From positions 26,592 through 90,591 of the forward strand of contig JAOZUO010000003.1 in the NCBI GenBank assembly GCA_029938605.1: a stretch of DNA of 64,000 nt, written 5' to 3'. This document shows, piece after piece, positions 30,616 through 62,943 of this stretch. The translations under genes were made by a program, and so were the position numbers. The notes under the pieces were generated by a model, which was not told the origin of the DNA, made no database searches, and worked only from the letters and a program-made list of their open reading frames with translations. Each line of letters begins with the position of its first letter. The stretch's first letter is position 1. This DNA comes from Deltaproteobacteria bacterium. Lineage in GTDB: Bacteria; Myxococcota_A; Polyangia; HGW-17; JAJRWW01.

Positions 30616-31859
<1,244 letters not shown>

Positions 31860-38962: not shown

Positions 38963-39733
38963 TTAGGACATCTGACTACGCAGGGTGGCCAGCAGTTGCC
39001 GCGCCTCGTCTGGAATATCGTCGAGGTTGGGATACGGGGGTGCGCCCGACAGGTCGGCGTCGATGGCCTTGGAGTCGTAGGGCAGCACACCCAGGACCGA
39101 TATGGGCGCCAAGGCCTTGGTTACTGCGGCGGTGTCGGCACCATCGCGCACCTTGTTCACCACGGCGGCAATGTTCTTGATCCCGATCTCGGCGGCCAGC
39201 TCAGCGACCCTTTGGGCGGTCTTGATGGACCGCGCCCCGGGCTCCACCACCACGATCATCAGGTCCACGGCCGTGGCCGTGGCGCGGCCGAGGTGCTCCA
39301 CTCCCGCCTCCATGTCCATAATGAGGTGGTCCTTCTGGCCGAGTATAAGGTGGGTCACCAGGGCCTTGAGCATGACGCTCTCGGGGCAAATGCAGCCCGA
39401 TCCTCCATGATCCACGGTGCCCATGAGCAGCAGGTGTACGCCGTCCTTCTCTACGGAGAGCTTGTCGGGCAGATCGTCCACTGTGGGGTTCAGCTTGAAA
39501 AAGGACCCAATGGCACCTGGCTTCGCGCCCGTGCGCTCCTCGATGAGCTCCTTGAGCTCGGTGACCGGAGCGATCTCATCACCATTTTCGATGCCCAGGG
39601 CGGACGCCAGGCAGGGCGCGGGGTCCGCGTCCACGGCGATAACCCGATCTCCCTCGGCCGCCAGCAACCGGGCCAACAGCGCCGCCACGGTGGTCTTGCC
39701 CACGCCACCTTTTCCACTGATTCCAATCTTCAT
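38963..39733 (-). CDS. cooC: CO dehydrogenase/acetyl-CoA synthase nickel-insertion ATPase (CooC/AcsF family)
   Basis: MKIGISGKGGVGKTT deviant Walker A. MinD/ParA-like. Lies within the acs operon. Confidence 0.8.
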   Translation of the reverse strand: MKIGISGKGGVGKTTVAALLARLLAAEGDRVIAVDADPAPCLASALGIENGDEIAPVTELKELIEERTGAKPGAIGSFFKLNPTVDDLPDKLSVEKDGVHLLLMGTVDHGGSGCICPESVMLKALVTHLILGQKDHLIMDMEAGVEHLGRATATAVDLMIVVVEPGARSIKTAQRVAELAAEIGIKNIAAVVNKVRDGADTAAVTKALAPISVLGVLPYDSKAIDADLSGAPPYPNLDDIPDEARQLLATLRSQMS

Positions 39734-39817
39734 GATCTCTCTCCATAAACGTCTGGTCTAGAACCTAAACACACATGGCACCAGAGCAATACAGAATTGA
39801 ACGTTCGCGCTGACACA

Positions 39818-40110
39818 TCGCTCGCTTAGCCCCCGCTACGGATGTTCCCCTTGCCGCTCCAGCGGGGCGCTGCAAGAGCGGCTGCGGAGAAATCCTCCAC
39901 GGGGGCGACGCTCGCTGGGTGGTGCTTACACGGAAATTTGCGAGGCATACGATACTCGATGATACGCGCTGTGCCGCTCGCTTAGCCCCCGTTCCGGATG
40001 TTCCCCTTGCCGCTCCAGCGGGGCGCTGCAAGAGCGGCTGCGGAGAAATCCTCCACGGGGGCGACGCTCGCTGGGTGGTGCTTACACGGAAATTTGCGAG
40101 GCATACGATC
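39818..40110. repeat. tandem direct repeat, 2 x 156 bp, in the cooC-acsE intergenic region
   Basis: The unit ctcgcttagcccccg(c/t)t(a/c)cggatgttccccttgccgctccagcggggcgctgcaagagcggctgcggagaaatcctccacgggggcgacgctcgctgggtggtgcttacacggaaatttgcgaggcatacgat recurs at 39821 and 39977. Each unit holds the hairpin gccgctc...gagcggc. Confidence 0.8.
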
Positions 40111-40174
40111 AACGGAGCGGACGCGGAGCGGACTATCCGAGCTCGGTAACGAGGAAAACGGCTCTACATAAGTG

Positions 40175-40262
40175 AGCGGAGCCCGCACGGAGGATTTCAC
40201 GGCAGCCGCTCTCGCAGCGCTTCGCTGGAGCGGCAGAGTGAATCCTTCGTGTGGGCGAAGCG
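40175..40262. repeat. partial third copy of the 156-bp unit, in inverted orientation
   Basis: cggaggatttcacggcagccgctctcgcagcgcttcgctggagcggcagagtgaatcc is the reverse complement of the unit core with a few substitutions. Confidence 0.65.
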
Positions 40263-40325
40263 AACGGTTCTACGGCGGGATCTACAGCCCGAAGGTGTGT
40301 TTTGAGGGAGGCTGGGGGGGGGGAG

Positions 40326-41219
40326 CTAGAGATCTAGCCAGGAGTCGGAGTAGAGCTTTTGGCCGAGGAGGACCTGGGTGGTCTTGACGTAGTCGGTCTC
40401 TTCCTTGGACAGGCCGGCCATATCGGGTACGTCGCCGTCCATGATCTTGCCCACGATGGTCTCGATGTCCTTGCGCTTACCGCGGGCGATGTCCATGAGG
40501 CCCTTGTCGAGGGGATCCACGATGGCGCCCTTGAGGCCGGCCCTCAGGAGCATGGCAAAGTAGGTCTGGTTCACCAGCGGGCGAAGCTTATCCGGGCAGC
40601 CATTAGAGATGTTGGACAGGCCACAGGTGGACATGCACTCGGGGAACATGTCGGGCATCATGAGCATGAAGTTGGTGCAGCCCTGGGCCTCGATCTGCTG
40701 GGAGCTGACCGGCACCACGATGGGATCCACCCAGATATCCTCACCCGCTAGACCCGCCTCCTGGGCGGGGTACACGATCTCGGAGGCGAGCACGCCGCGC
40801 TCATTCTCGTCCCGGGGGATGCCCTCGGGGCCCCACAGAAGCGCCACCATGCCGGCGTCGTACTTCTTGGTGAAGGGCATGAGCTTCTCCATCCGGTCCG
40901 GGCGCGCCATGATGGAGTTGATGACGGCCTTGCCGCCCTTGTTCTTGTAGACCTTGAGCCCCGCCTCCATGGCGTCTACGTTCATGGTGTCTAGGTACAG
41001 CGGCAGATCAGAGACCTCCTGCACCGCGCCGACGACAAACTGCATGAGCTCGTCGCCCTTTTTGCGGGCCGGCCCCAGATTGACGTCCAGATAGTCCGCC
41101 CCCGCCTCGGTGAGCCTCACCGCGAGATCCTGGATAGGTTTGACGTCCCGGTTCTTCATGGCCGGGCCGATGGACTTGGACATCACGTTGATGTTTTCAG
41201 CGATTACCTTGAAGGACAT
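40326..41219 (-). CDS. acsE: methyltetrahydrofolate:corrinoid/iron-sulfur protein methyltransferase
   Basis: Pterin-binding TIM-barrel signature (IGERINV-like MSFKVIAENINVMSK..., GADYLDVN, VDPLV-like IVDPLD). Confidence 0.85.
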   Translation of the reverse strand: MSFKVIAENINVMSKSIGPAMKNRDVKPIQDLAVRLTEAGADYLDVNLGPARKKGDELMQFVVGAVQEVSDLPLYLDTMNVDAMEAGLKVYKNKGGKAVINSIMARPDRMEKLMPFTKKYDAGMVALLWGPEGIPRDENERGVLASEIVYPAQEAGLAGEDIWVDPIVVPVSSQQIEAQGCTNFMLMMPDMFPECMSTCGLSNISNGCPDKLRPLVNQTYFAMLLRAGLKGAIVDPLDKGLMDIARGKRKDIETIVGKIMDGDVPDMAGLSKEETDYVKTTQVLLGQKLYSDSWLDL

Positions 41220-41295
41220 TGGGATCTCCTCGGTGGCGCAACCCTAAGCGCCAGGCAATAATGTCGTCTTGATTCCTAACGCCTGGTCTGCACGA

Positions 41296-42645
41296 CTAGG
41301 CGAAGTGCTGCTTGAGGTAGGCCGGGATGAAGCTGGCCTCACGAGGACCGACCATGACCTCCCACTCGTCACCCAGCTCCTCTTCGAGGTCACCGCTGAT
41401 GATGGCCGCCAGACCGGGGATGACGATCTTCTTGTTGGCGATCTTGTCGTTGCAGCCCTGCTTCTTCATGGATTCGCCGATGGAGTCACCCACGAACTTG
41501 CCTGCCGCCCATGCGGTCAGCACGGAGAGGCCGTCGGTGTCCTTGACGTAGAGCCAGCACGGGATCCGGCTGTTCTCGATCTCGCCACTCACGATGAAGT
41601 AGGTGAGCGAGAAGTTCGAGGTCACCACCACGGGGCTGTCCGCCGTAGCGTCGTTCATGGAGTAGAAACCCTCGTCGGTCTTCATGGGCCGCTGCGGGTC
41701 GGTGTAGATGTTCAGTCGCTCCAGGAGCAGCGGGAACAGGTACTGGCCCTGGAAGTCGGACAGAATGATGATGCCGGCGTACTTGGCGATGCCGGCGGCG
41801 GCAAGGACCGCCTCCTTCATCGGGGTGTCAGCCATGTCGCACACCGGGGCGATGGTCGGGAAGCCGAAGGTGCGGTCCTTGGCCGTGAGGGCCAGGCGCC
41901 GGATGGCGGTCTGGTCCCGAAGCTGATCGCCGGCGGTGCGGGCACCGGAGTCGAAAACCACGTCCTTGATGCCGGCCTTTTCTGCCGCCTCGGACAGCTC
42001 TTTGATCTCGTCCAAGCCGTTGCCGATGACGCCCAGCGACGCGCCGTGCTCCTTGGCCAGTCCACCCATGGCGTCCAGGTTGTCCTTGGTCACACCGTAG
42101 ATGAGCACCTTGGAGTCGTCTCGCTCGGCCAGACCAGCTTTGATCATGTCCGGGTTGTCGGACCAGAGGATCAGCCCAGCGTCCGTAGCGCCGCGCACCT
42201 TCTTGACCAAGGCAGCGTAGGTGTCAGCGTTGCCGGACTCAGCCTTGAGGGCGAACAGATCGCCCTTGAGGAGAAGACCCACCCGCTCGTACTGGTGGTC
42301 GACGAAGCACTTGAGCTTACGGTCGACCTCTTCGGCGGAGTCGCTGTCGCTGATCTTCAGGGCCAGACCCGTGGGGTTGAAGAAAGTCTTCTCGTGACGG
42401 AACATCACGAGCTCGCCACCGGTCTTGAAAGCGTCTTTTCCGGCGCCGATCGCCACGGGGCGGATGGGCGGCGCGGAGGCCTCCGACAGCATGGCCTTGG
42501 CCTCGTCACTCACGTAGGGACATGCGCTCAGCTCAGCCTTACCTGCGGCGAGGTTCATGGCAAACGCCAGGCACGTAGGGACGCCGCACTCCTTGCAGTT
42601 CGTCTTGGGCAGCAACTTAAAAATCTGGATTCCGGTCAATCCCAT
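41296..42645 (-). CDS. acsC: corrinoid iron-sulfur protein large subunit (AcsC/CdhE)
   Basis: N-terminal 4Fe-4S motif TNCKECGVPTCLAFAMNLAAGKAELSACPYVS. Confidence 0.85.
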   Translation of the reverse strand: MGLTGIQIFKLLPKTNCKECGVPTCLAFAMNLAAGKAELSACPYVSDEAKAMLSEASAPPIRPVAIGAGKDAFKTGGELVMFRHEKTFFNPTGLALKISDSDSAEEVDRKLKCFVDHQYERVGLLLKGDLFALKAESGNADTYAALVKKVRGATDAGLILWSDNPDMIKAGLAERDDSKVLIYGVTKDNLDAMGGLAKEHGASLGVIGNGLDEIKELSEAAEKAGIKDVVFDSGARTAGDQLRDQTAIRRLALTAKDRTFGFPTIAPVCDMADTPMKEAVLAAAGIAKYAGIIILSDFQGQYLFPLLLERLNIYTDPQRPMKTDEGFYSMNDATADSPVVVTSNFSLTYFIVSGEIENSRIPCWLYVKDTDGLSVLTAWAAGKFVGDSIGESMKKQGCNDKIANKKIVIPGLAAIISGDLEEELGDEWEVMVGPREASFIPAYLKQHFA

Positions 42646-42747
42646 GTGCCGTTCTCCTAATCGATGGTCTCGGCAGACCTTTGGTGGCCTATCGGGTTCT
42701 TGAGAATTGTTGCCCCCCCGGCGAAGAGCCGAGGGGGGGGGAAATCA

Positions 42748-44961
42748 CTACATCATCGGGTCCATGGTGATCGCCGGGTGACCCTTCTCGGTCAGCCACT
42801 CGAGGATCTCCATCTCATCGGTGGACACGGTCTCGTCGCAGATGAGCTCGGCGAAGTTCTCCGACAGGCCCTGCTTGACGGCCTGGGCGTTGATCCTGTC
42901 CTTGAGCTCTTCTTTGAGGTTCTTGGGCAGCCAGACCAGCCGCCCGATGCCGCCTTCGGCCCTGATGAACTTGCCGGACACCACATACAGCTTGGAGTGG
43001 CCCACAAAGCCCGGGGTCACCGCGCCGCCGCCCACGGTGCCGGCCAGGGTGGTGAACTTCATACCCGAGGGGGTCATGCCGCCGTAGTCGCGATCCACGG
43101 TCATGATGCCGTTACACATGGGCATGATGGCGCTGATGGCCTCGAAGCAGCCGCAGGAAGTCATGGGCTCTTCCATGATGGAATAAGCGTTGTACAGCTC
43201 CACCGTGCCGCGAGAGGCCTGGCGCACGAATTCGTTGACACCCTCCCACTGGCCGCGCTTCTCGTCGATGACGCGCCCCTTCTCGATGGGCTGGTTCGGC
43301 CCCGTGGGGGTGATTTCGAAAGAGGCCTTGCAGTCCAACCAGGAGTAGGCACCACAGAGGCCCGTCCGCTCAGGGGTCACCACGCACACGTGGCTCGGAG
43401 CGAAGGACTGGCAGAGAGTACAGCTGTAGTAGGTCTCCTCGTCCTCGTCGACCATGCCCTCCACACGGGCGTCACGCACGGCGTAGGATGCCCGCGCCAA
43501 CTTGAGGATCTTCTTGGCGTCCTCTTCCTTGGTGAAGATGGTCACCTTCACCTTGTCGAGAATGGCGCCGAACTCGCTGTGGTACTTGGCCCAGATGATC
43601 TCGCCAATATGCTTGAAGCGGAAGCCCTTCTCGTAGGCGGTCTTGGAGATACGGAACCAGGCGATGTCGCGCTGGCCAATGTGCATGCTGCCCTGGGCGA
43701 AGTTCACCAGGTGGTGGATCTGCCGCTCCAGGATGGGCTCGAAGTCGGCCTGGAACTCGCGGCCCGCCACTTCGACCTTAATGCCCAGGGAGCACTTGGA
43801 GTTCTCGCCGAGCTCATCGAGATCGGGACCAATGAGCTGAATGTCGTGGTCCTCGATGGCGTCCATCTCGGCCGAGGTGGTCCACTCCACGGCGAAGGTG
43901 CCGCCACGACCGCCACCGCCCTCGAAGTAGATGTCCGGCCCACGCACGCGCTCGCCCTCGAAGGCGGCACCGTAGGCTACGGGAACCTCTACCTTGGACA
44001 CGTTGACCTTCAGACCACGGACCTCCACCGAACGCTGAACGATTTCGTCGTGGGGCACATTGGAGACCACATGCTCGTAGGTACACACGCCCGTGGGCAG
44101 GATCTGCGGAATGGGTGTGTCGGCGATAACCGGGAAGCCGTAGTTCACGCACATGAGGCCGTTGGCGTACCACTGGTCGGTGACGTGACCCAGGGTCATG
44201 GCGAAGGCGAAAACGCGGTCCTTGTTGTAGATGAGGACCCTGCGGTAGTCGCCGGGCTCGATGCCGCCGAAGGTCAGGGCCGCACGGGTGGCGAACCCCG
44301 CGGCGAACACCGCCGCGGAGACGTCCGGGCCGAAGGAGACCAGCCGGGTGCCCCAGCCGATCTCCACACCCGCCTCTACGAGCTGCTCGGAGAAGCGCAC
44401 GCCGTTGTGCTCGCCTGCCATGAAGACGTACAGGTTCTTCTGCTGCAGCTCCAAGGCGATCTGAACGGCGATCTCCGTGGTGGGCGCGGCACCTAGGATA
44501 GCGGCAAAGCCCGGGGCCGTGCCGTCGACGAACTCCACGCCGCGTTTCCGCAGGATCACGTCGTCGGCGGCGCCAAGCCAGATGTTATCGTCAGTGACAT
44601 CCTCGCCCCGGACATAGAAGTCGGGGAACTCGAGGTACCTCATGCACTCTTCCATCTCCTGGGCGAACAAGGCCACTGCGCCCGCGTCCAGGGCTGGGCC
44701 CAGGTAGGGCAGATGCACATGCTCCTTGACCAGGGGCGGCAGGAGCATCCGACAGCGGTCGAAGACGGGACCCATGTCTTCCAGCGTCTCGATCTTGTGA
44801 CCGAGCAGGCCGTAGATGCTGGGCAGGTAGTAGCCGGTGTTGGGGAACCCAACCTCGGTCTTACCGCCGTGCGTATCCATCATCTCGGTATATTTTTTTC
44901 GCACGCGCTCCACGATTGCGTGGGCGCCACGGATTCCAGCGGATGCGATGATCTTAGACAT
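42748..44961 (-). CDS. acsB: acetyl-CoA synthase catalytic subunit (AcsB/CdhC)
   Basis: 737 aa with global AcsB architecture. C-terminal A-cluster region with the CGAYSWLDCK...CTLCQSFAPSHVC motifs. Confidence 0.85.
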   Translation of the reverse strand: MSKIIASAGIRGAHAIVERVRKKYTEMMDTHGGKTEVGFPNTGYYLPSIYGLLGHKIETLEDMGPVFDRCRMLLPPLVKEHVHLPYLGPALDAGAVALFAQEMEECMRYLEFPDFYVRGEDVTDDNIWLGAADDVILRKRGVEFVDGTAPGFAAILGAAPTTEIAVQIALELQQKNLYVFMAGEHNGVRFSEQLVEAGVEIGWGTRLVSFGPDVSAAVFAAGFATRAALTFGGIEPGDYRRVLIYNKDRVFAFAMTLGHVTDQWYANGLMCVNYGFPVIADTPIPQILPTGVCTYEHVVSNVPHDEIVQRSVEVRGLKVNVSKVEVPVAYGAAFEGERVRGPDIYFEGGGGRGGTFAVEWTTSAEMDAIEDHDIQLIGPDLDELGENSKCSLGIKVEVAGREFQADFEPILERQIHHLVNFAQGSMHIGQRDIAWFRISKTAYEKGFRFKHIGEIIWAKYHSEFGAILDKVKVTIFTKEEDAKKILKLARASYAVRDARVEGMVDEDEETYYSCTLCQSFAPSHVCVVTPERTGLCGAYSWLDCKASFEITPTGPNQPIEKGRVIDEKRGQWEGVNEFVRQASRGTVELYNAYSIMEEPMTSCGCFEAISAIMPMCNGIMTVDRDYGGMTPSGMKFTTLAGTVGGGAVTPGFVGHSKLYVVSGKFIRAEGGIGRLVWLPKNLKEELKDRINAQAVKQGLSENFAELICDETVSTDEMEILEWLTEKGHPAITMDPMM

Positions 44962-45008
44962 TGCTTCTCCTCAATTGGGCGTTCGCTTCGCAGCTAGTAG
45001 ACCGGGGC

Positions 45009-46964
45009 CTAGGCCTCGATGTCGGCCTCCGCACGGCGCATCTCCATGTCCATGAGGACACGTTCCTTCTTCTTGTCGATGCCGAGCGCTTTTCGTTTCT
45101 CGTCGATATGGGCGATCATGAGCTGCGCGGCCTTGACGGGGTCCGGCTCAAAGTCCCACTTGCCGCCGACCTTCTCGGCAATGCCGTCGAACAGGTATTC
45201 GGTGAGCTTCTTGGCGCCCAGGGTCGGGAAGGAGACTCCGAACACGGTATAGACGCCCGAGGCCACGAAGTAATGGCCGATGGAGATGGCCTTCTCGGAC
45301 ATCCACTCCGGCGCGGCACCCGCGGCGGGGAGGTCCGAGATGTCGTCTCCCAGGCCCCCCTCCTTGACCACCGCGGCGGCGGCCATGAGGATACGGGAGT
45401 TGTCCACGCAGGAGCCCATGTGGAGCACCGGTGGGATGCCCACGGTCTCACAGACCTCGCGCAGGCCGGGACCGGCAAACTCCAGACCCTTCACCGGATC
45501 CATCAGCCCCTCCTTGGCACAAGCGATGGCGCTGCACCCGGTCTGAAGCACAATCACATCGTTTTTGACCAGCTCCTTGACCATTTCGATGTGATAGAGG
45601 TCATGCGGCACCTTGGCGTTGTTACAGCCCACCACGCCGGCGATGCCGCGGATCTTGCCGTTGATGATATTGTCGTTGAGCGGCCGATACGAGGCGCGGA
45701 AGGAACCCCCCAGCAGATAGTTGATCGTCTCGTGGGAGAAGCCGGCGACCAGATCGATGGTATCGAAGACCGTCTTCTTGGCGTCCTTCTGCCGGTTCTG
45801 GTAGTTGTCGCAAGCGACCTTGACGATCTCCTTGGCCGACTCGAGCGCACGGTCCTCGTGGAACTCGATGTGCTGGGCGTCGGGCATCCTGGCGATACGG
45901 CTCGTGGTGAGGATTTTGGTGTGGTAGTGCTTGGCCACCTGGGGCAGAGACTGCATAATGCACTGGATGTCCACCACCATGGCCTCCACCAGGCCGGTCA
46001 CCATGGCAACCTCCTGCTGGAGGAAATCGCCGGCAACCGGAATGCCGTGCCGCATCAGGATCTCGTTGGCCGTGCAGCACATGCCGCCCAGGTTGATGCC
46101 GCCGGTGGCACCCTTGGAGGCGGCGTACTCCTTCATCTCGTCAGTCATGGACACGGCCACGATCATCTCGGAGAGCAGCGGCTCGTGCCCATGCAAGATG
46201 ATGTTCACCTGGTCCTCCTCCAAGAACCCCAGGTTGACCTTACTGACCACTGGAACCGGAGTGCCGAACAGGATGTCCTGAAGCTCCGTGGCCAGCATGG
46301 ATCCACCCCAGCCATCGCCCAACGCGGCGCGGCTGCCGTGGTCGATCAGGTGATGGTACTCCTGGTCCACGCCCATGTGCGTCCGGTGCATGATCTCCAC
46401 GATCTCGCGGTCGATGCCCCGGGGCATGATGCCCTGCTCCCGCCACAGCTGCTGGCGTTTGAGCGGCGCGCGCTGGCACATGACGAGCTCACCCTCCTGC
46501 TGGCCCCACTGAGCCAGGGCGAGCTTGCCCACTTCCAGCGCGATGTCATTGATGGCGCGATCCCCAATTTCGACCTCGAAGTCCATGGCCAAGGCGAGGA
46601 GCTTCTGCTCGTCTTGGATGGAGTAGCCCGGAGCCTTGCCCTCGGCCACCTCGATGAAGGTCTCGGCCACGGCCCGACCGTGGTCGGAGTGTGCCGCGGC
46701 GCCGGCGGCGATCATCCGGATAAAGTTCCGCGCGGCGATGGTGTCGGAATCAGCGCCACACACGCCCCGCTGGGGCCCGTTGCCGTAGGGATCGGTCTGA
46801 CACGGTCCCATGGCACAGATCCGACAGCACACGCCCAGATTCCCAAAGCCACACTGCGGACTCTGCTGTTCCAAACGGTCCCAACAGAGCTCGACACTTT
46901 CTTCACATGCCTGGCCGATAAGCTGCGCGGTAACAGGATCGCCACTCTTCATTTTCTCGTTCAT
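45009..46964 (-). CDS. cooS: anaerobic carbon-monoxide dehydrogenase catalytic subunit (CooS/AcsA)
   Basis: B/D-cluster motif CGFGNLGVCCRICAMGPCQ. 651 aa. Confidence 0.9.
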   Translation of the reverse strand: MNEKMKSGDPVTAQLIGQACEESVELCWDRLEQQSPQCGFGNLGVCCRICAMGPCQTDPYGNGPQRGVCGADSDTIAARNFIRMIAAGAAAHSDHGRAVAETFIEVAEGKAPGYSIQDEQKLLALAMDFEVEIGDRAINDIALEVGKLALAQWGQQEGELVMCQRAPLKRQQLWREQGIMPRGIDREIVEIMHRTHMGVDQEYHHLIDHGSRAALGDGWGGSMLATELQDILFGTPVPVVSKVNLGFLEEDQVNIILHGHEPLLSEMIVAVSMTDEMKEYAASKGATGGINLGGMCCTANEILMRHGIPVAGDFLQQEVAMVTGLVEAMVVDIQCIMQSLPQVAKHYHTKILTTSRIARMPDAQHIEFHEDRALESAKEIVKVACDNYQNRQKDAKKTVFDTIDLVAGFSHETINYLLGGSFRASYRPLNDNIINGKIRGIAGVVGCNNAKVPHDLYHIEMVKELVKNDVIVLQTGCSAIACAKEGLMDPVKGLEFAGPGLREVCETVGIPPVLHMGSCVDNSRILMAAAAVVKEGGLGDDISDLPAAGAAPEWMSEKAISIGHYFVASGVYTVFGVSFPTLGAKKLTEYLFDGIAEKVGGKWDFEPDPVKAAQLMIAHIDEKRKALGIDKKKERVLMDMEMRRAEADIEA

Positions 46965-47037
46965 TCGAGACTCCTTGCTCTATCTTCGCCTGTCCCGGAA
47001 GCACCGCCGAAGCGGCCCCGGGGCGCCGGGCGTCAAG

Positions 47038-47802
47038 TTACATGTGTCCTTCTGCCATGGCCTGCTTGGCGTAGAACTCCCGCCGGCAGGTGGGGCAGAC
47101 CGACCGCACATCCTCGTCCATATTGACGGTCTTCTTCAGGTGCGCCAGGTGCTTCTCCGTGGCCACGGCCTTGCCGCAGATGCGGCAGCGCACCAGCTTG
47201 TGTATGGCGCGCCAACGGGGCAGCTCCCGCGTATCAGCCGTGTCGATGACCTCAATGCACTGCGTGGGACAGACCGAGGCGCAGGAGGCACATCCGATGC
47301 ACTCCTTGGACAGGTCGTCAAAGGGCGTGCCCACGTCCTTTTTGTCCCCGCGGCCGATGAAGCCCAGGGCCTCGACGCCCATGACGTCCTTGCACACCTG
47401 AATACACAGGCCGCACAGGATGCACTCCTCACCGCTCACCGGGTAGGCCTGGGCATCGACGCCGTACTCGGCGGCAAGCTCTCGGACCCGCTTGGCCTTG
47501 GGCGCCCGCGCGATGAGCAGCTCGAGTACACCCTTGCGATTCTCTCGGATGTTCTCGGAGTCGGTGACCACCTCGATGCCCGGCAGCACCGGGTAGTTGC
47601 AGGAGGTGGTCAGCTTAGTCTTCTTGCGGCCGTGGGACTCAGCAGTGACCTCCACCAGGCACAACCGGCAGGCCCCATAGGCCTCCACTGCGGGGTGGTA
47701 GCACAGGTGCGGGATATCGATCCCGTTGTCCAGAGCGGTCTGTAGCAGGCTCGCGCCTTGCTCCGCCTGGATGGTTTTTCCGTCGATGACGATGTCAATC
47801 AT
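47038..47802 (-). CDS. iron-sulfur protein with a 2Fe-2S ferredoxin-like N-domain plus 4Fe-4S clusters (NuoG/HndD N-terminal-fragment-like)
   Basis: MIDIVIDGKTIQAEQGASLLQTALDNGIDIPHLCYHP...CRLCLVEV plus CILCGLCIQVC and CIGCASCASVCP. Start set at the ATG 47802, which avoids a 359-bp overlap of the track ORF with the upstream gene. Confidence 0.6.
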   Translation of the reverse strand: MIDIVIDGKTIQAEQGASLLQTALDNGIDIPHLCYHPAVEAYGACRLCLVEVTAESHGRKKTKLTTSCNYPVLPGIEVVTDSENIRENRKGVLELLIARAPKAKRVRELAAEYGVDAQAYPVSGEECILCGLCIQVCKDVMGVEALGFIGRGDKKDVGTPFDDLSKECIGCASCASVCPTQCIEVIDTADTRELPRWRAIHKLVRCRICGKAVATEKHLAHLKKTVNMDEDVRSVCPTCRREFYAKQAMAEGHM

Positions 47803-47842
47803 CTGTAGATGCTCCCTGTTAAATAAATCGACAACCGTGGCC

Positions 47843-49780
47843 CTAACCCTGGGTCCCTGTCCGGATGTCGATCGCATCGAACTTGCAGGACTGATAGCAG
47901 ATCCTGCACTTCGTACATTTGTCTTGGTCGATCTTGTAGGTGTCGCCCTTCTTTTTCTCGCCGCTGATGGCATCGTAGGGGCAGTTGAGTGCACAAAGAT
48001 TGCAGCCGTTGCACTCGGCAGTGATGTGGAAGGAGATGAGCGGCTTGCACACGCGCCCGATACACTCGCCCCGTTCGATGTGTCCCTCGTACTCTTCACG
48101 GTAGTACTTGAGCGTCGACAGGACCGGGTTGGCCGCCGTCTGTCCGAGGGCGCAGAGCGACCCATCCATAACCACCTTGGCCAACGACTCGAGCTTCTCA
48201 ATGTGCTTCTGGGTTCCGCGCCCTTCGCAGATGTCGTTGGTGAGCTCCCACATGCGCTTGAGTCCCTCGCGGCAGGTGGTGCACTTGCCGCAGGACTCGT
48301 CGCGGAGGAAGTTCAAGAAGTACCGGGCAAAGTCCACCATGCAGGTGTCTTCGTCCATGACGATCATGCCGCCCGAGCCCATCATGGACCCGGCCTTGGT
48401 CAGCTCGTCAAAGTCCACGGGCTGGTCCAGGAACTTCTCGGGCAGACAGCCGCCGGAGGGACCGCCGGTCTGCACGCCCTTGAACTTCTTACCGTCGCGA
48501 ATGCCCCCGCCGATGTCGAAGATGATCTGGCGCAGGGTCGCGCCCATGGGCACCTCCACCAGGCCGGTGTTGTTGACCTTGCCCACCAGGGAGAAGATCT
48601 TGGTGCCCTTGGAGCCGCCCCAGGGGTTCTTGGACACGTCGCCGGTGCCGATTCCGGTGAACCAGTCGACACCCTTGTTGATGATAAGAGGCACGTTGGC
48701 CCAGGTCTCGACGTTGTTCAGGTTCGAAGGCTGATCGTACAGTCCCTGCTCCACCGTATGGATGTGCTTGGCCCGGGGCTCGCCCACATACCCCTCGAGG
48801 GAGGCCATGAGCGCCGTGGACTCGCCGCACACAAAAGCACCACCGCCCCGCACGACCTTGATGTCGAAGCTGAAGTCCGAGCCCAGAATGGACTTGCCCA
48901 GCAGCCCCATGGCCCGCGCCTGCTCCAAGGCGGTAGTCAGGTTGCTCACCGCCAGGGGATACTCGTTACGAACGTAGACGTAGCCCTGGCTTGAGCCGAT
49001 GGCGAAGGCACCAATGATCATGCCCTCGATGATGAGGTGCGGATTGCCCTCGAGCAGCGACCGGTCCATGTAGGCGCCGGGATCGCCCTCATCAGCGTTG
49101 CAAATGACGTAACGCTGCTCGCCCGGGGCGTCCTTGCAGGTGCGCCACTTCACGCCGGTGGGGAATCCACCACCGCCACGACCCCGCAGGCCGCTTTTCG
49201 TGATCTGGTCGATGACCTCATCGCCCTTCATCTCGCCAAGCACCTTGACCAGGGCGCTGTAACCGTCGCGAGCGATGTAGTCGTCGATCTTGCGGGGATC
49301 GAGCATCCGCCCGCCATGCATCAGCTCCTGCTGCTGGTGCTTGTAGAAAGGAATGTCGTTCTCTTTGGTGCATTTCTTGCCGCTGACCGGATCTACGAAG
49401 AGCAGCTCTTCGATGACTTCGCCCTTGGCGAGGGTCTTGGCGACGATGTCCGCGGCGTTCTCCGACTTGACCTTCTGGTAGAGGATCTCCTCGGGGTAGA
49501 TGACCATGAGCGCACCGCGCTCACAGAAGCCGTGGCAACCCGTGGCCACGATCTCCACCTTCTCTTCCAGACCGGCCTTGCAGACCTCGTCGCGGAGGGC
49601 CTCGGCGAGGCTATCGCATTTATAGGCCTTGCAGCCGGTGCCAGTGCACACCGAGACAATCTTACGATCAGGGTTCTTGTCGCCCTGCAGCTTGGCGCGG
49701 TACTCGGCGAGATCTCCCCCGGAGTTCAGCAGCTTGAGCTTGGAAAGGTCGATGGACGTATGTTCCGGAGAGCAGCTCAT
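47843..49780 (-). CDS. NuoF/HndC-like NAD(P)H-binding flavoprotein subunit with a fused N-terminal thioredoxin-like 2Fe-2S domain and C-terminal 2x4Fe-4S
   Basis: GRGGGGFPTGVKW (FMN/NADH site), SCGKCTTCREG (N3 cluster), C-terminal CNGCNLCALNCP...CTKCRICYQSC. Confidence 0.8.
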   Translation of the reverse strand: MSCSPEHTSIDLSKLKLLNSGGDLAEYRAKLQGDKNPDRKIVSVCTGTGCKAYKCDSLAEALRDEVCKAGLEEKVEIVATGCHGFCERGALMVIYPEEILYQKVKSENAADIVAKTLAKGEVIEELLFVDPVSGKKCTKENDIPFYKHQQQELMHGGRMLDPRKIDDYIARDGYSALVKVLGEMKGDEVIDQITKSGLRGRGGGGFPTGVKWRTCKDAPGEQRYVICNADEGDPGAYMDRSLLEGNPHLIIEGMIIGAFAIGSSQGYVYVRNEYPLAVSNLTTALEQARAMGLLGKSILGSDFSFDIKVVRGGGAFVCGESTALMASLEGYVGEPRAKHIHTVEQGLYDQPSNLNNVETWANVPLIINKGVDWFTGIGTGDVSKNPWGGSKGTKIFSLVGKVNNTGLVEVPMGATLRQIIFDIGGGIRDGKKFKGVQTGGPSGGCLPEKFLDQPVDFDELTKAGSMMGSGGMIVMDEDTCMVDFARYFLNFLRDESCGKCTTCREGLKRMWELTNDICEGRGTQKHIEKLESLAKVVMDGSLCALGQTAANPVLSTLKYYREEYEGHIERGECIGRVCKPLISFHITAECNGCNLCALNCPYDAISGEKKKGDTYKIDQDKCTKCRICYQSCKFDAIDIRTGTQG

Positions 49781-50253
49781 GCGGCACCTTCCTTCGCGTC
49801 GGCCTTACGGACTTTTTTGACGAGCCGCGAGACCTGGGCAGACTTCTGGTTGCCGTGGTACTCGCCGTCGACGATGACCAGCGGCCCCAGGGCGCAGGCG
49901 CCCACGCAGTTGACCGTCTCGAGGGTAAACTGCATGTCCTCGGTGGTGCCGCCGGCCTTCACCTCGAGAATGCGCTCGAACTCCTCGACCAGCATGGGCG
50001 CGCCCCGCACGTGGCAGGCGGTGCCCATGCACACAGTGCAGATGTGCTTGCCCCGCTCCTCCAGGGAGAAGGCGGAAAAGAAGGTCGCCATGTAGTTGAT
50101 ACGGCTGCGCGACACCCCCATCACCTCGGACACTCGCTCGAGAGCCGGACGCGGCAGGTAGTTGTACTCAGCCTGGATATCCATCAGGACCGCTAGCAGC
50201 TCGGCCTCTTCGGCACCGTAGCGGTCTATGATCTTGTCCACTGTTCTTTGCAT
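49777..50253 (-). CDS. NuoE/HndA-like 2Fe-2S thioredoxin-like ferredoxin subunit
   Basis: HICTVCMGTACHVRGA...VNCVGACALGP. 158 aa. Confidence 0.8.
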   Translation of the reverse strand: MQRTVDKIIDRYGAEEAELLAVLMDIQAEYNYLPRPALERVSEVMGVSRSRINYMATFFSAFSLEERGKHICTVCMGTACHVRGAPMLVEEFERILEVKAGGTTEDMQFTLETVNCVGACALGPLVIVDGEYHGNQKSAQVSRLVKKVRKADAKEGAA

Positions 50254-50347
50254 CGGTGGTCCCTTTGCTTCGTTCGATCCGCGCCTCTATGAAATCCCCG
50301 GCGCACGCGGAAGAGGCAGTCCGCTCGCACGTCGTGTGACCGGACTC

Positions 50348-50845
50348 CTACAGATTACGCCAGGGGCGGTACTGTTTGGGTGCCTCATCCTCCACCACCT
50401 GCGAGAACTCAAGGGCGCCCGTGGGGCACGCCTCGGCGCAGGCGGGGATCCGGTCCTCCCGGAGCCGGTGCACGCACAGATCACACTTGGTGATCTGCTC
50501 GCCCTGCAGGTGCGCCTCGGGCACACCGTAGGGACAGGCGAGCACGCAGGAGCGACAGCCGATGCACAGCTCGTCGTCCACGATCACCGGGCCACCGAGG
50601 CCCAGCTTCTGCATGGCGCCCGTGGGACACACCGTCACGCATGCCGCAGCTTCACAATGGCGGCACTCCGTAGGTACGCAGGCCCCCTCCACCTCGTGGA
50701 GCTTCACCCGCGGTCGTGGGGGCGGAACCTCATAGATGGCTTCGAAAAGCGATTTGCTCTTGGAGTGCTCGAGCGCGCAAGCCTGCACACAGCGGCTACA
50801 GGCGACGCAAATATCGGAGTTTACCTTGACCAGACCAGTAAGCAT
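50348..50845 (-). CDS. cooF: CooF-like 4x[4Fe-4S] ferredoxin
   Basis: Four CxxCxxCxxxCP-type motifs in 165 aa. Confidence 0.65.
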   Translation of the reverse strand: MLTGLVKVNSDICVACSRCVQACALEHSKSKSLFEAIYEVPPPRPRVKLHEVEGACVPTECRHCEAAACVTVCPTGAMQKLGLGGPVIVDDELCIGCRSCVLACPYGVPEAHLQGEQITKCDLCVHRLREDRIPACAEACPTGALEFSQVVEDEAPKQYRPWRNL

Positions 50846-50869
50846 CGTAGATGCCTCCGTTCGCAGTAG

Positions 50870-51817
50870 CTATTTGGCGGGCAGAGTTTCGATCATCTCG
50901 CGGATGAGCTTCACCGCCTCGGGGTGCCGCATCACGAGCACGTCGGCGCCCGCCAGCAGCAGCGAGGTGGCGGTCACCGCCTCCATGACAATACCGCGTT
51001 GCTCCGCATCACCCATGGTGGGCGCTTCCTCTTCAGTCAGAGCGGCCTCTTTGACCTTCCACACCTCCTTGCCGAGGTTGCAATACAGGGGGTACTGCAG
51101 CTTCGCGTCCTGCTGGGTCAAGGCCGCCTGCCGGCAGCGCTCGATGACCGTATAGGAGTATTCGAGGCCGTAGCCGAGCCCGCCCGTGGTGGGATCGATG
51201 AGCACCGAATCCACCGGCACGCCCAGATTCTCGGTGAGGATGTTGAGCTGCTTGGCGAGGTTGATGTCGATGGGCGACGAATTGATGGCCACGTGACCGT
51301 CGCTAATGACCGACGCGCCGATCTGCTTGTAGTTGGTGTCCTGAAGCGGACCGATACCCGCCCGACGCCCGCGCAGCGCGTCGGACACGGCGCGAAGCAC
51401 TTCGGTGTCCTTCTCGACGTTGGCTGTACCCCACGCTACGATGGGCACCTTCACGGCGTCCGCCACGGCCTTGGCCACGGTGGCGGCGTGAGCGGCGTCC
51501 TTGTCGGCGCCATTGGGGTCGGTGCCGGAGAAGTCAATGTGGATGATATCCGCGCCGAACTCCTCCACGCACTTCTTGGCCCAGGCCGCCGGGTCACCCC
51601 AAACGTCCTCATACTGCTTTTTAAGCGCCGCCGGCCAGTGGTCGGGAGCCACATCGGGCACCTCAAAGGCGATGATGGGCCGGTGCGGCGCATCCCCCTC
51701 GAAGTCATGGAACGCATAGGCGCTGGCGCCGCCCATGGTCACGGCGTTGTCGTCGGCGCCCAACGTGATTTCGTTGATGGCGCCGGAGTAGGTAACTTTC
51801 GGAATCTGGGTGGCCAT
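50870..51817 (-). CDS. acsD: corrinoid iron-sulfur protein small subunit (AcsD/CdhD)
   Basis: TIM-barrel AcsD similarity throughout. Start at the ATG 51817 preceded by the strong SD ggaggagag; the track ORF extends to 51871. Confidence 0.8.
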   Translation of the reverse strand: MATQIPKVTYSGAINEITLGADDNAVTMGGASAYAFHDFEGDAPHRPIIAFEVPDVAPDHWPAALKKQYEDVWGDPAAWAKKCVEEFGADIIHIDFSGTDPNGADKDAAHAATVAKAVADAVKVPIVAWGTANVEKDTEVLRAVSDALRGRRAGIGPLQDTNYKQIGASVISDGHVAINSSPIDINLAKQLNILTENLGVPVDSVLIDPTTGGLGYGLEYSYTVIERCRQAALTQQDAKLQYPLYCNLGKEVWKVKEAALTEEEAPTMGDAEQRGIVMEAVTATSLLLAGADVLVMRHPEAVKLIREMIETLPAK

Positions 51818-51822
51818 GCTGG

Positions 51823-51831
51823 CTCTCCTCC
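51823..51831 (-). promoter_or_regulatory. Shine-Dalgarno sequence for acsD
   Basis: Minus-strand GGAGGAGAG, 5 nt upstream of the ATG at 51817. Confidence 0.45.
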
Positions 51832-51888
51832 CGTAAATGGCGTACGTCGGCCCCGGGGGCCGGAGATCCACCTGGAATCAAATTCGTC

Positions 51889-52101
51889 CTAGGCGGGCGT
51901 CTTGCGCTTCTCGCTGCCGTACCCCTCTTCGGCGTACCAGTAACGCTCACCGGTCTCGAGGTACTTGAGCATCTCCTCGCGGTTTGCCATATGCTCTCGC
52001 CACAGGCCCTTGCTCTCGGGTTTGCCGGCTTCGTAGTCGGGCCCAATGACCTCGACGTCGGCTCCGGTGTGGGACTTTTTCTTGATCAGATCAGAGGACA
52101 T
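51889..52101 (-). CDS. small hypothetical protein (70 aa) between cooC and acsD
   Basis: ORF with moderate, non-repetitive composition (…WREHMANREEMLKYLETGERYWYAEEGYG…) in a tight operon gap. Could be a spurious GC-frame ORF. Confidence 0.3.
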   Translation of the reverse strand: MSSDLIKKKSHTGADVEVIGPDYEAGKPESKGLWREHMANREEMLKYLETGERYWYAEEGYGSEKRKTPA

Positions 52102-52258
52102 GGTTCGTCTCCTGCGTGCAGTGTCTTTTTTCGGTTTCTATGCCGACACATTTGCAAAAAAAAACATTTTATAAAAGCCCAAAGATGGCTGTTTCTCAAT
52201 GCATACGATGTTTTTTTTCGTATGCATGAGCCAGGCTTAGTTAATACCCGCAAACCCA

Positions 52259-53047
52259 TCAAGTTGCAGTATTTAGAAAATTCAACACCTTTTGTGCCGC
52301 CACGGCAGCGGGTGAGGAGGCCTGAAGGTCAAGCAACGACTTCTGAGCCAGATCCGCGGCGGTAACATCGGAATCCATTGGAACTACAGTGAAAATGTCT
52401 ATACCTAGCTTCTTCGCCTCCGCCAGAACCGCTTCGTTGAGTCCCTTTTCGGGGTCGGTTAGCGAGCCCTCACCAACTATTTGGTTCACCAAAACGAGCT
52501 GCTGAAGAACTTCGATCCCCATTTCCTCCACCAGCCCAATGACGCGATGCGCCGACCGAATGCCCCGTACAGAGTGATCGGACATGATCACCATGAGATC
52601 TACATGGGCCGCCGTACGCCGGCTCAGGTGCTCCAAACCGGCCTCGTTGTCCACCACTACGTACTTGTAATTTTCGGACAGGGTCTCCACCGCGCCCCGC
52701 AGCAGATTGTTCACATAGCAGTAGCAACCGGCACCCTCGGGGCGACCCATGACGAGTAGATCCATCCCCTCGTCCTCTACGATGATTTCGTTGAGCTTGT
52801 ACTCGAAGAACTGCCCCTTGGTCATACCCGCCGGAAGGGTGCCCGAGGCCGCGCCAAACTCTTCCCGAACCATGCCGATGGTCTTGGGTGCCTCGAGCCC
52901 GAGGGCCTCGGAGAGGGTGGCGTTGGGATCGGCGTCCACGGCGAGCACCGGGGCCTGACCGCTTTCGATCAGACCTCGGATGATCATCGCCGCAAAGGTG
53001 GTCTTGCCGGTGCCGCCCTTGCCGGCCATTGCAATCAGCTTCGCCAT
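52259..53047 (-). CDS. cooC: second CooC/AcsF-family nickel-insertion ATPase
   Basis: MAKLIAMAGKGGTGKTT deviant Walker A. MinD-like. Paralog of 38963-39733. Confidence 0.8.
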   Translation of the reverse strand: MAKLIAMAGKGGTGKTTFAAMIIRGLIESGQAPVLAVDADPNATLSEALGLEAPKTIGMVREEFGAASGTLPAGMTKGQFFEYKLNEIIVEDEGMDLLVMGRPEGAGCYCYVNNLLRGAVETLSENYKYVVVDNEAGLEHLSRRTAAHVDLMVIMSDHSVRGIRSAHRVIGLVEEMGIEVLQQLVLVNQIVGEGSLTDPEKGLNEAVLAEAKKLGIDIFTVVPMDSDVTAADLAQKSLLDLQASSPAAVAAQKVLNFLNTAT

Positions 53048-53171
53048 GGTGCTCCCTTATATTGGTACTGGGTTGTGGATGAGAGGGACAAGCAGTGGAG
53101 CTCGTCGGAAAGTAGGGTTTCGCGCAGTTCGTCGGGCATTGTGTAAATGCCCTATGGCCTCTGGGCCACTG

Positions 53172-54059
53172 CTAGTCAATGTTGTGATGCATTTTAGAAG
53201 CTTTGACGGTGTTGACCATGAGCATGGTGATGGTCATGGGGCCCACGCCGCCGGGAACGGGCGTGATGGCCGACGCCACCTCGACGGCCTCGTCGAAGTC
53301 CACATCGCCGGCCAGCTTGGCCTTACCACTATCCGTGGTGCCAATACGGTTCACGCCCACGTCGATGACCACAGCGCCCGGCTTGATCCAATCGCCCTTG
53401 ACGTACTTGGGCACGCCGGCGGCCACAATGAGGATGTCGGCCTTTTTGCAATGGGAGGGCACGTCCTTGGTGCGGGTGTGCACCAGGGTCACCGTGGCGT
53501 TGGCCCCCTCGGACTTCTGCAACAGGATGTTGGCGATGGGCTTGCCCACGATGTTGGAGCGACCCACCACGCAGACCTCCGCGCCCGACGTCTCGACGCC
53601 CGAACGGATGAGGATCTGCTGGATGCCCGCCGGGGTGCACGGCAGGAAGTCAGCCTCGCCCACGACCATCTTGCCCACATTCACCGGATGGAACCCGTCA
53701 ACGTCCTTGGCCGGATCGATGGCCATGAGGATCTTGGACTCGTCCACGTGCTTGGGCAGGGGGAGCTGCACCAGGATACCGTCGATCTTGGGATCGTTGT
53801 TCAACCGGTCGATGAGCTGGAGCAGGTCGGCCTCGGTGGTCTCCGCGTCAAGGTTGATCTGCTCGGAGTGCATGCCCAACTTCTTGGACGTGCGGTTCTT
53901 GCTCTTCACATAGGACTGCGAGGCGGGGTTCTCGCCCACCAGCACCGTGGCCAAGCCCGGCACCACGTCGTGCTTGGCCTTGAGCTCGGCGATCTCCTCC
54001 GTGAGCTCGGCCCGAATCTGCTTCGCAATGTCTTTTCCTGACAGGATCTTCGCGCTCAT
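53172..54059 (-). CDS. folD: bifunctional methylene-THF dehydrogenase / methenyl-THF cyclohydrolase
   Basis: AKILSGKDIAKQIRAEL...PGLATVLVGENPASQSYVKSK...DGILVQLPLP. Start at the ATG 54059; the track ORF extends to 54134. Confidence 0.85.
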   Translation of the reverse strand: MSAKILSGKDIAKQIRAELTEEIAELKAKHDVVPGLATVLVGENPASQSYVKSKNRTSKKLGMHSEQINLDAETTEADLLQLIDRLNNDPKIDGILVQLPLPKHVDESKILMAIDPAKDVDGFHPVNVGKMVVGEADFLPCTPAGIQQILIRSGVETSGAEVCVVGRSNIVGKPIANILLQKSEGANATVTLVHTRTKDVPSHCKKADILIVAAGVPKYVKGDWIKPGAVVIDVGVNRIGTTDSGKAKLAGDVDFDEAVEVASAITPVPGGVGPMTITMLMVNTVKASKMHHNID

Positions 54060-54375
54060 CCGGTTTCTCCTTGAAAACGTGTTGTCCCGACGATTCCGGC
54101 GGGAAGATATCAATGACTGGGTCACTTGAATCACACGGCCATGGCAATGTCAACGGCGCAACCATGGCAACGGCGGCGGCTCAATTACGCCGGTGGATCC
54201 GGTGGTCTGGCGCCGGGGGATCCAAAGCCTTTTAGCCAAGCAGATCCTGTCACGGATCCCGGCACGGAGATCCTACTACTTCTCCGGTAGTCACCATTGG
54301 CAATCACTCTTGGCCCCCTTGGCACCCCTATCGATCACCCTTGACATCTGTTCAGTCCCTGCTAGGCTCGAATGT

Positions 54376-61489: not shown

Positions 61490-61728
61490 GGGGACTCCTA
61501 CAGTAACCCGAGTGGAGGTCCGCCGTCGACTGGGATTCGACTGTTTGTGTAAGGGTCCGCGAATGGACAACTCCGTCGCCCTAGCCGCCGATCCATCCCG
61601 CTGGGCGGCCATCATCGATCGAGTTGTCTATTCGCGGACCCTAAGTCTACTCTACGGGCTTGCCGCGGACGCTGGTTCATGTCATGGATACGTTCTGCGG
61701 CTGGCCACCGGCCCGAGGATATGGCAAC

Positions 61729-62943
<1,215 letters not shown>

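Follow-up and report, generated by a model that had tools for sequence, protein, structure and literature searches.

A Type 2 BfuCBA module and a CooF-like polyferredoxin inside the carbon monoxide dehydrogenase/acetyl-CoA synthase operon of a Myxococcota-like bacterium

The energetics of the Wood-Ljungdahl pathway hinge on the source of the very low-potential electrons that reduce CO2 to CO, and textbook schemes assign these electrons wholly to reduced ferredoxin. The operon analysed here encodes the carbonyl branch of this pathway, i.e., carbon monoxide dehydrogenase/acetyl-CoA synthase (CODH/ACS), and carries within it a three-gene BfuCBA module. It lies on the minus strand of a 64,000-nt stretch of DNA (hereafter the window, whose positions serve as coordinates for the cluster) taken from contig JAOZUO010000003.1 of assembly GCA_029938605.1, deposited under the name Deltaproteobacteria bacterium. 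Ordinary bacterial CODH/ACS operons, of the Moorella type or of the acsD-cooS-acsB-acsC-acsE type, have the five structural genes, maturases of the CooC type, a gene for a 70-aa protein and, outside the insert, the gene order in common with the window. They differ from it in that the window has an extra 4.4-kb cooF-bfuCBA block between acsD and cooS, whereas the ordinary versions use free ferredoxin.

The BfuCBA nomenclature and the definition of the Type 2 BfuA come from Schut et al. 2022 (PMC9304861). WorABCSL, also called Wor-Bfu, of Acetomicrobium mobile (PDB entry 9mqx) has been solved, and in this complex the zinc finger and the C-terminal helix of WorA recruit the polyferredoxin WorS, placing cluster S4 10.7 Å from A4 (PMC12318220). 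In the BfuAs of Por-Bfu and Mbh-Bfu, the zinc finger is retained and the helix is missing (PMC12318220). A CODH-linked class, Codh-Bfu or CodhABCSF, was predicted in 2022 (Schut et al., PMC9304861) and in 2025 (Feng et al., PMC12318220) and is uncharacterised; CooF has been named as the WorS homologue of this hypothetical, never purified CodhABCSF (PMC12318220). The published Codh-Bfu class comprises four sequences, all from Firmicutes and assigned to BfuB clade 49, interpreted as CO oxidisers of the stand-alone kind. The Codh genes of A. arabaticum and C. cellulovorans are flanked by bfuB and bfuA (PMC9304861). Beyond these two papers and unrelated marker-gene surveys, no description of a NuoEF/Bfu module embedded among ACS genes was found in the literature, of which the coverage was incomplete, leaving absence unproven.

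The window resembles Wor-Bfu in that the Wor subunits are among the top PDB matches of its BfuA, BfuB and BfuC and share their cofactor motifs, its BfuA combines a Cys4 zinc finger and a C-terminal helix with the absence of A3 and A5, and a four-cluster CooF is encoded in place of WorS. It differs in that its catalytic partner is the Ni-Fe CODH of CODH/ACS, not a tungsten aldehyde oxidoreductase, and in that its BfuA tail (..YAxxxAxEGHM) is unlike that of WorA. With Codh-Bfu it shares the presence of cooS, cooF and bfuABC in one cluster and CO/CO2 as the proposed third substrate. Unlike Codh-Bfu, its unit is cooF-bfuCBA-cooS inside an acsDBCE operon, with acsB directly after cooS, its host is Myxococcota-like, and its nearest BfuBs belong to Por-Bfu modules (the published clade numbering not being reproduced here). 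Those Por-Bfu modules hold the BfuBs closest to that of the window (69% identity for L001, 59-62% for L002-L009; L001-L173 denote loci in the DNA of relatives) and likewise have a short zinc-finger BfuA, but BfuAs without a CooF-like neighbour have no C-terminal tail and the Por-Bfu partner is a thiamine pyrophosphate enzyme; no POR genes are found in the window. New here is the integration of Bfu into a CODH/ACS operon, in a Myxococcota-like host, the general idea of Codh-Bfu being already present in the two papers (PMC9304861, PMC12318220).

Genes were called by combining a listing of open reading frames (ORFs) with Pfam and NCBIfam profile scans at curated cut-offs. Positions 38963-54134 hold 14 co-directional minus-strand genes, transcribed in the order folD, cooC/acsF-like, a 70-aa gene, acsD, cooF, bfuC, bfuB, bfuA, cooS, acsB, acsC, acsE, a repeat insertion and cooC. 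This is the order given by the first-pass annotation, a model's reading of the sequence alone, and every gene named there lies on this strand within these positions. The cluster is confirmed as a genuine acetyl-CoA synthase/CO dehydrogenase operon, the products of which are the bacterial CODH/ACS (AcsA/CooS, AcsB, AcsC, AcsD, AcsE), two Ni-insertion ATPases and FolD. The inserted block and the two genes that follow it are, in order of transcription:

50348..50845, minus strand: cooF-like polyferredoxin with four [4Fe-4S] motifs, a WorS/HycB homologue (Fer4_11; four Cys motifs)
49777..50253, minus strand: bfuC, NuoE/HydC-like [2Fe-2S] subunit (PF01257, E 4e-44)
47843..49780, minus strand: bfuB, flavin mononucleotide (FMN)/NAD(H) subunit of 645 aa (PF01512, PF10589; N-terminal [2Fe-2S] and C-terminal 2x[4Fe-4S])
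47038..47802, minus strand: bfuA, Type 2 (WorA-type) Fe-S protein of 254 aa (Fer2_4 and Fer4; WorA match)
45009..46964, minus strand: cooS/acsA, Ni-Fe CO dehydrogenase catalytic subunit (PF03063, E 1e-177; TIGR01702, 641 bits against a cut-off of 478)
42748..44961, minus strand: acsB, acetyl-CoA synthase (PF18537, PF03598, PF19436; NF040764, 1030 bits against a cut-off of 800)

The three Nuo-like genes of the block constitute a BfuCBA module, in which the bfuC stop and the bfuB start overlap by 4 bp. BfuB carries a PF01257-like (thioredoxin-like [2Fe-2S]) region at residues 37-115 and a Fer4 pair at residues 587-640, and by motif it has the N3-type [4Fe-4S] site (B1), the extra [2Fe-2S] (B5) and the 2x[4Fe-4S] (B3, B4). 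Its best solved relatives are WorB (9mqx_B, 729 bits), NiFe-HydB (721), HydB (693) and NfnB (661), compared with 366 bits for Fdh-beta and about 342-359 for true NuoF. The NuoF-like protein, for which a choice between HydB, NfnB and Fdh-beta types had been left to be made, is therefore of the HydB/BfuB type, at 661-729 bits versus roughly 340-366 for true NuoF or Fdh-beta. All of the top PDB matches of BfuB are experimentally bifurcating enzymes, and every solved bifurcating relative likewise has the additional [2Fe-2S] domain at the N-terminus and the 2x[4Fe-4S] domain at the C-terminus. Alignment with WorB and NiFe-HydB shows conservation of GRGGGGFPTG, NADEGDPGA, ESCGKCxxCREG and all Cys motifs. 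BfuC, whose C1 cluster motif reads CMGTAC...CVGAC, matches best HydC (8a6t, 7p5h) and, in third place, WorC (9mqx_C, 116 bits).

The Fe-S protein described at first sight as a NuoG fragment does lie between acsD and cooS, but it is better named a Type 2 BfuA and is 254 aa long, not 387. The 387-aa reading overlaps bfuB, and its domains begin only at residue 133; the 254-aa gene preferred to it starts at an ATG at 47802 behind a GGGAG ribosome-binding site. The best match of this BfuA is WorA (9mqx_A, 247 aa; E 5e-53, 183 bits), aligned over residues 2-247 including the C-terminal CxxC...CxxC, whereas all other solved relatives align only over the N-terminal 100-200 residues or so. Its invariant Cys sets account for one [2Fe-2S] and two [4Fe-4S] clusters, while Cys206/209/236/239, at the A5 position, form a zinc-finger motif, and this Cys4 zinc finger is followed by a 15-aa helix ending in EGHM. 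The Pfam scan finds neither an NADH-G_4Fe-4S_3 (His-ligated cluster) match nor a catalytic domain in BfuA. An AlphaFold2 model built from 46 database homologues has a mean pLDDT of 92, with the C-terminal helix at residues 237-251 (pLDDT about 84). Foldseek places 9mqx_A first for this model (TM 0.84/0.86, root-mean-square deviation 2.4 Å over 247 columns), and the next matches cover the N-terminal ~210 residues only, at TMq of about 0.6. BfuA is a WorA-type adaptor without a catalytic domain, of Type 2, i.e., A1, A2 and A4 are kept and A3 and A5 are missing.

Two better-known uses of NuoEF-like pairs were considered for these genes and rejected. The N-module of complex I (NuoEFG) would be expected to score above the curated cut-offs, but TIGR01959 reaches 464 bits versus 559 and TIGR01973 103 versus 470, and there are no other nuo genes among the ORFs scanned across the window. 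An NAD-linked hydrogenase (Hox/HydABC) or formate dehydrogenase (FdsABG/Fdh-Bfu) is at odds with a BfuA that ends after the zinc finger and the helix; neither the cluster nor the ORFs scanned elsewhere in the window have a match to the Fe_hyd, NiFeSe or Molybdopterin Pfam families. Relatives that do have hydrogenase or formate dehydrogenase catalytic domains can be told apart, e.g., L017 and L052. Such a pairing had been named as the finding that would speak against coupling of the module to CODH, and within the window no catalytic subunit of either enzyme adjoins the NuoEF pair.

The second component of the block is CooF, which falls within the NrfC/HycB family, its PDB matches being NrfC, HycB3/4 and WorS (9mqx_E, E 7e-18). 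If CooF takes the place of WorS, the BfuA tail would be expected to follow its presence. BfuAs from 19 loci were compared for the residues that follow the zinc finger and for a cooF-like match beside the bfu genes. Where such a match adjoins, all ten complete BfuAs extend 12-30 residues past the zinc finger (window, L097, L082, L079, L148, L040, L001, L060, L062 and L070); L155, with a cooF-like match and no complete bfuA, stands outside this count. Where there is none, no tail is found in any of eight BfuAs (seven of Por-Bfu modules plus L002, of unknown context), which end at CxxCR or at most 4 residues beyond. The 15-residue tail [RK][RK]x[FY]YAxxVAVEGHM recurs in 29 of the 120 best BfuA database homologue clusters, and the seven contexts of EGHM/GHI-type tails that were inspected are all ACS-embedded. 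By analogy with WorA, the tail may dock CooF.

Recurrence of the arrangement was followed in a BfuB genome scan (80 loci), a CooS metagenome scan (80 further loci) and BfuA homologue look-ups that added others. The full order cooF-bfuC-bfuB-bfuA-cooS-acsB is kept in L097 (identical gene order, 87-92% identity, BfuA 87%), in L162 (BfuA 82%, full synteny including the flanking genes), in L082 (same order, 42-67% identity, BfuA 42%) and in L168/169 (same order, BfuA 45%). The segment bfuA-cooS-acsB is also present on L161 (66%, GCA_975955765.1), L164/165 (48%, with FTHFS nearby) and L173 (44%), whose contigs begin inside the preceding, unannotated gene. Overall, the arrangement recurs on at least seven contigs besides that of the window. 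Other arrangements combine the same parts: L079, from a Clostridia metagenome-assembled genome (MAG), reads cooC-cooS-cooF-bfuCBA-acsB-acsC-RACo-cooC-acsD-acsE, and in L019 (6513-13123), from a Chloroflexia MAG, bfuCBA lies between archaeal-type cdhA and cdhB (epsilon subunit, PF02552). L148 and L155 carry cooS-cooF-bfuCBA with no ACS genes in the available sequence, both contigs ending close to the cluster. L081, whose CooS is 71% identical to that of the window, has the same operon with cooF and, in the slot of bfuCBA, a 131-aa 2x[4Fe-4S] ferredoxin (9578-9973, plus strand). The two operons look like the outcome of a natural exchange of electron partner, so that the slot would be one that holds CODH electron partners. 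The layout had been called less common than the Moorella-type one, and the counts bear this out: among the 51 metagenome loci with a readable upstream neighbour of cooS, this neighbour is bfuA in 2 and acsD in 40.

The gene content, the domain and cofactor motifs, the structural match, the synteny and the correlation between BfuA tail and CooF led to a model in which electrons pass reversibly from CODH to CooF, then to BfuABC, and from there to NAD+ plus ferredoxin. We consider this the best reading of the locus, with a probability of roughly 0.55. Its observed parts are those just listed; a physical complex, bifurcation, its direction and its stoichiometry are predictions from homology and synteny. 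The coupling proposed from the first reading, an NAD(P)H- and ferredoxin-linked module wired to CODH and possibly bifurcating, is supported as far as sequence analysis goes. In this model, the redox partner of CODH would be a dedicated chain, CooF then the Type 2 BfuABC, and not free ferredoxin alone, and CooF would be clamped by the zinc finger and helix at the C-terminus of BfuA, by analogy with WorABCSL. Electrons would run from the C-, B- and D-clusters of CODH through the four clusters of CooF to A4, A2 and A1 of BfuA and on to the FMN of BfuB. The FMN would then split electron pairs between NAD+ and ferredoxin, the latter reached via C1 of BfuC and B3/B4 of BfuB. The net reversible reaction would be 2 CO + 2 H2O + NAD+ + 2 Fd(ox) = 2 CO2 + NADH + 2 Fd(red) + 3 H+, where Fd is ferredoxin.

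Run in the direction of acetyl-CoA cleavage, this reaction would convert the carbonyl group into NADH plus reduced ferredoxin. In synthesis, CO2 would be reduced by both of these donors together, at a mean potential of about -390 mV; the individual potentials are -520 mV for CO2/CO, about -500 mV for ferredoxin and about -280 mV for NAD (PMC9304861, Table 1). Such confurcating CO2 reduction would be feasible only because ACS keeps CO in the tunnel very low. By Nernst arithmetic, at 29.6 mV per decade for two electrons, the gap of 130 mV to -520 mV would correspond to CO at about 4e-5 of the standard state, i.e., tunnel CO would need to be lower than it by a factor of roughly 10^4 to 10^5.

Several observations weigh against this model. 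Most related CODH/ACS operons function without a Bfu module (the 40 of 51 loci above). The closest relative of the BfuB, in L001 (69%), belongs to a 2-oxoacid oxidoreductase cluster, as do many others, and a rough neighbour-joining tree of BfuBs, in which identities are compressed to 52-62% and which has no support values and so favours neither independent recruitment nor vertical descent, leaves the CODH-linked BfuBs scattered. The Bfu module is therefore promiscuous, and BfuB alone cannot reveal its partner. P0175, a BfuA with a divergent tail found in L172, stands with a CooF-like gene and bfuCB beside genes resembling those of dihydropyrimidine dehydrogenase (DPD), not CODH, so that the tail marks a CooF-type partner and not CODH as such. 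On the biochemical side, Codh-Bfu has never been purified (PMC12318220), and CO, at -520 mV, can reduce both NAD+ and ferredoxin without bifurcation, so that a thermodynamic need for the module is not obvious (PMC9304861). Finally, the genome beyond the window is not visible.

Given these points, three other explanations have to be weighed. Clusters of CooS, CooF and a flavin adenine dinucleotide (FAD)/NAD oxidoreductase offer a functional parallel for a simple oxidoreductase branch, CO:NAD+ or NADH:CO2, that is attached through CooF and does not bifurcate, with ferredoxin being served separately at the D-cluster. The potential of CO is low enough for direct NAD+ reduction (PMC9304861, Table 1), and the synteny and the tail test, which support attachment, are silent on bifurcation. 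We nevertheless regard such a branch as unlikely: BfuC and the extra [2Fe-2S] and 2x[4Fe-4S] domains of BfuB are kept, whereas the non-bifurcating NuoF and Fdh-beta relatives do without these, and Wor-Bfu, served by an equally low-potential aldehyde donor, still needs NAD+ and ferredoxin together (PMC9304861). The same attachment is denied altogether if CooF-BfuCBA is a separate enzyme merely co-transcribed with the acs genes, balancing the NADH and ferredoxin pools or supplying very low-potential electrons to a different target, e.g., for reductive reactivation of the corrinoid protein. BfuABC is highly modular, being found with POR, NuoD-like, Fdh, GltD-like and DPD-like partners, and an RACo gene is present in L079 and in no position of the window operon. 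Yet a BfuA without a catalytic domain requires a third-substrate partner, the module always lies between cooF and cooS and never adjoins acsC or acsD, and L148 and L155 carry cooS-cooF-bfuCBA without ACS or corrinoid genes in their available sequence (the contigs end nearby), all of which makes an independent enzyme improbable.

The module could also be the detachable NADH-input part of a membrane complex encoded elsewhere, of an 11-subunit Nuo-like or Mbh-like kind, in which case its position among the acs genes would reflect co-regulation only. The Desulfarculales loci L060, L062 and L070 provide a precedent, with cooF-bfuCBA followed by a NuoD-like gene and with tailed BfuAs. Those tails are longer and different, whereas EGHM-type tails are ACS-linked in every context seen, and the 64-kb window holds no nuo- or mbh-like membrane gene and no NuoD-like gene, which leaves a membrane destination very unlikely. 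The chain from CODH through CooF to BfuABC, with NAD+ and ferredoxin as joint acceptors, remains our preferred reading.

A further-reaching proposal, put forward tentatively and with the odds somewhat against it, is that the CODH/ACS holoenzyme, and not a stand-alone CODH, would be joined by CooF and a BfuABC plug in a supercomplex, where the carbonyl branch would use flavin-based confurcation of NADH plus ferredoxin or yield both in acetyl-CoA oxidation. If so, the demand of the CO2-to-carbonyl step for reduced ferredoxin would be roughly halved, and a CODH/ACS hard-wired to a bifurcating module would alter the energy cost of the pathway in the lineages that carry it. There would then be a distinct, multi-phylum version of the Wood-Ljungdahl pathway (in the Myxococcota-like lineage, in Clostridia and, with archaeal-type Cdh, in Chloroflexia), of which the conserved ..YAxxVAVEGHM tail of BfuA would be a signature. 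The Codh-Bfu class would gain a physiological role beyond CO scavenging, and the design of a WorABC plug with a polyferredoxin wire would be extended to one of the oldest carbon-fixing enzymes.

Some of the related loci show further peculiarities. In L168 and L169, bfuB and bfuA are separated by a second BfuB-like gene (7967-9997, 676 aa), and a 216-aa Fe-S protein of HoxU-like type is encoded upstream of cooC. In L019, cdhA is apparently split into two ORFs, the BfuA has 208 aa and no zinc finger, and a second bfuC-bfuB pair follows the cluster. The neighbours of P0175 in L172 are two DHO_dh/Pyr_redox (PreA/PreT-like) genes, perhaps a Bfu partner class missing from the 2022 survey. Among the scanned loci, Fdh, FeFe-hydrogenase, GltD-like and NuoD-like partners of Bfu also occur.

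The remaining features of the operon, in order of transcription, are:

53172..54059, minus strand: folD, bifunctional methylene-tetrahydrofolate dehydrogenase/cyclohydrolase (PF00763, PF02882)
52259..53047, minus strand: upstream CooC-family Ni-insertion ATPase (CbiA/AAA_31)
51889..52101, minus strand: conserved 70-aa protein between cooC and acsD (tblastn conservation)
50870..51817, minus strand: acsD, corrinoid iron-sulfur protein small subunit (PF03599; NF003376, 382 bits against a cut-off of 280)
41296..42645, minus strand: acsC, corrinoid iron-sulfur protein large subunit (PF03599, PF04060; NF003195, 573 bits against a cut-off of 306)
40326..41219, minus strand: acsE, probable methyl-tetrahydrofolate:corrinoid protein methyltransferase (Pterin_bind above cut-off; position)
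39819..40266, no strand assigned: inserted repeat element in the acsE-cooC gap (156-bp unit; two copies direct, a third inverted and degenerate)
38963..39733, minus strand: downstream cooC, CooC1-type CODH Ni-insertion ATPase (CbiA/ParA; E 1.6e-52 to CooC1, 3kje)

Distances between genes of the cluster are 24-157 bp, the sole long gap being the 592-bp repeat gap between acsE and cooC. CooS, AcsB, AcsC and AcsD all score above the curated NCBIfam cut-offs. CODH chains from solved CODH/ACS structures (6ytt_B, 9fzy_B) are among the best PDB relatives of CooS, and AcsB, encoded directly after cooS, carries the N-terminal CODH-interaction domain. AcsE stays below its NCBIfam cut-offs (NF040758, 215 bits versus 370; NF005719, 224 versus 259), while its placement after acsC is kept in all related loci. 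The most likely start of acsD is at 51817 (MATQIPK), NF003376 aligning from residue 19. The folD ORF reaches 54134; its likely start is Met26 at 54059, since the NCBIfam FolD models align from residue 26, and the FolD homologue in L162 has 295 aa.

Both CooC copies noted on first reading are real, and they are 36% identical to each other. The upstream copy is divergent, matching CooC1 of C. hydrogenoformans (3kje) at E 9e-18 only; it is kept at the same position in related acs operons and is probably an AcsF-type paralogue. The downstream paralogue type is also found beside stand-alone cooS-cooF in L111, L151 and L154-156.

A small gene had also been noted between cooC and acsD. There is one at that place, but it is the 70-aa ORF at 51889-52101, and the 113-aa ORF at 51705-52046 looks spurious: it is Arg/Pro-rich and 53% conserved, against 82-92% for its neighbours, and the 70-aa ORF in another frame was preferred. 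By tblastn, the 70-aa protein is 83% identical in L097, 77% in L162, 59% in L168 and 44-56% in acs operons without Bfu. It has no match to a Pfam or NCBIfam family. The protein (MSSDLIKKKSHTG...GSEKRKTPA) is encoded just upstream of acsD in operons with or without Bfu, at 44-83% identity in 14 loci, and L168, a distant relative, preserves it better than BfuA (59% versus 45%).

The repeat gap between acsE and cooC, reported on first reading, proved to contain three copies of a 156-bp unit, two of them direct and one inverted. The unit was detected by Tandem Repeats Finder; an exact 50-mer is present twice, the direct copies are 98% identical, and the inverted third copy was found by blastn. Its RNA fold has a z-score of -8.6 relative to shuffled controls. 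Neither the rest of the window nor any of the related loci compared contains a further copy; L097, the 88% relative, lacks the unit and has a gap of about 48 bp. The repeat has the look of an insertion specific to this lineage, and it may uncouple transcription of the downstream cooC from that of the operon. The sole Rfam match in the cluster falls on this repeat; it is to a plant miRNA family, scores 38 bits (gathering score 137) and was taken as chance. A scan for promoters and terminators returned sites no more frequent than in shuffled controls and is uninformative on operon boundaries. In the ACS-Bfu operons of L161, L164/165, L168/169 and L173, a DUF3786 protein follows acsE; the window lacks it and has the repeat element at that place.

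The downstream cooC is directly followed, on its own strand, by a 445-aa ORF (37531-38868, minus strand) without a family match. Its position is kept in L162 (440 aa) and in L161 (439 aa, with a weak PEGA match), and a Peptidase_MA_2 gene comes next. Neither fhs nor metF nor fdh is found elsewhere in the 64-kb window. A complete carbonyl-branch operon is thus documented for a Myxococcota-like genome, although no methyl-branch genes of this kind are visible in the window. That the gene background is Myxococcota-like, as had been suggested, is indicated by the Lon protease of the window, the nearest named relatives of which, at about 70% identity, come from Myxococcales, Haliangiales and Kofleriaceae. 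Elsewhere, the window holds a tig-clpP-clpX-lon block, a MiaB-like enzyme, transporters and a Ser/Thr kinase. There are two ClpX-type genes (30615-31859 and 61660-62943, both on the plus strand), each with a zinc finger and AAA_2; one belongs to the tig-clpP-clpX-lon block, and the other stands alone, adjoining the Ser/Thr kinase gene.

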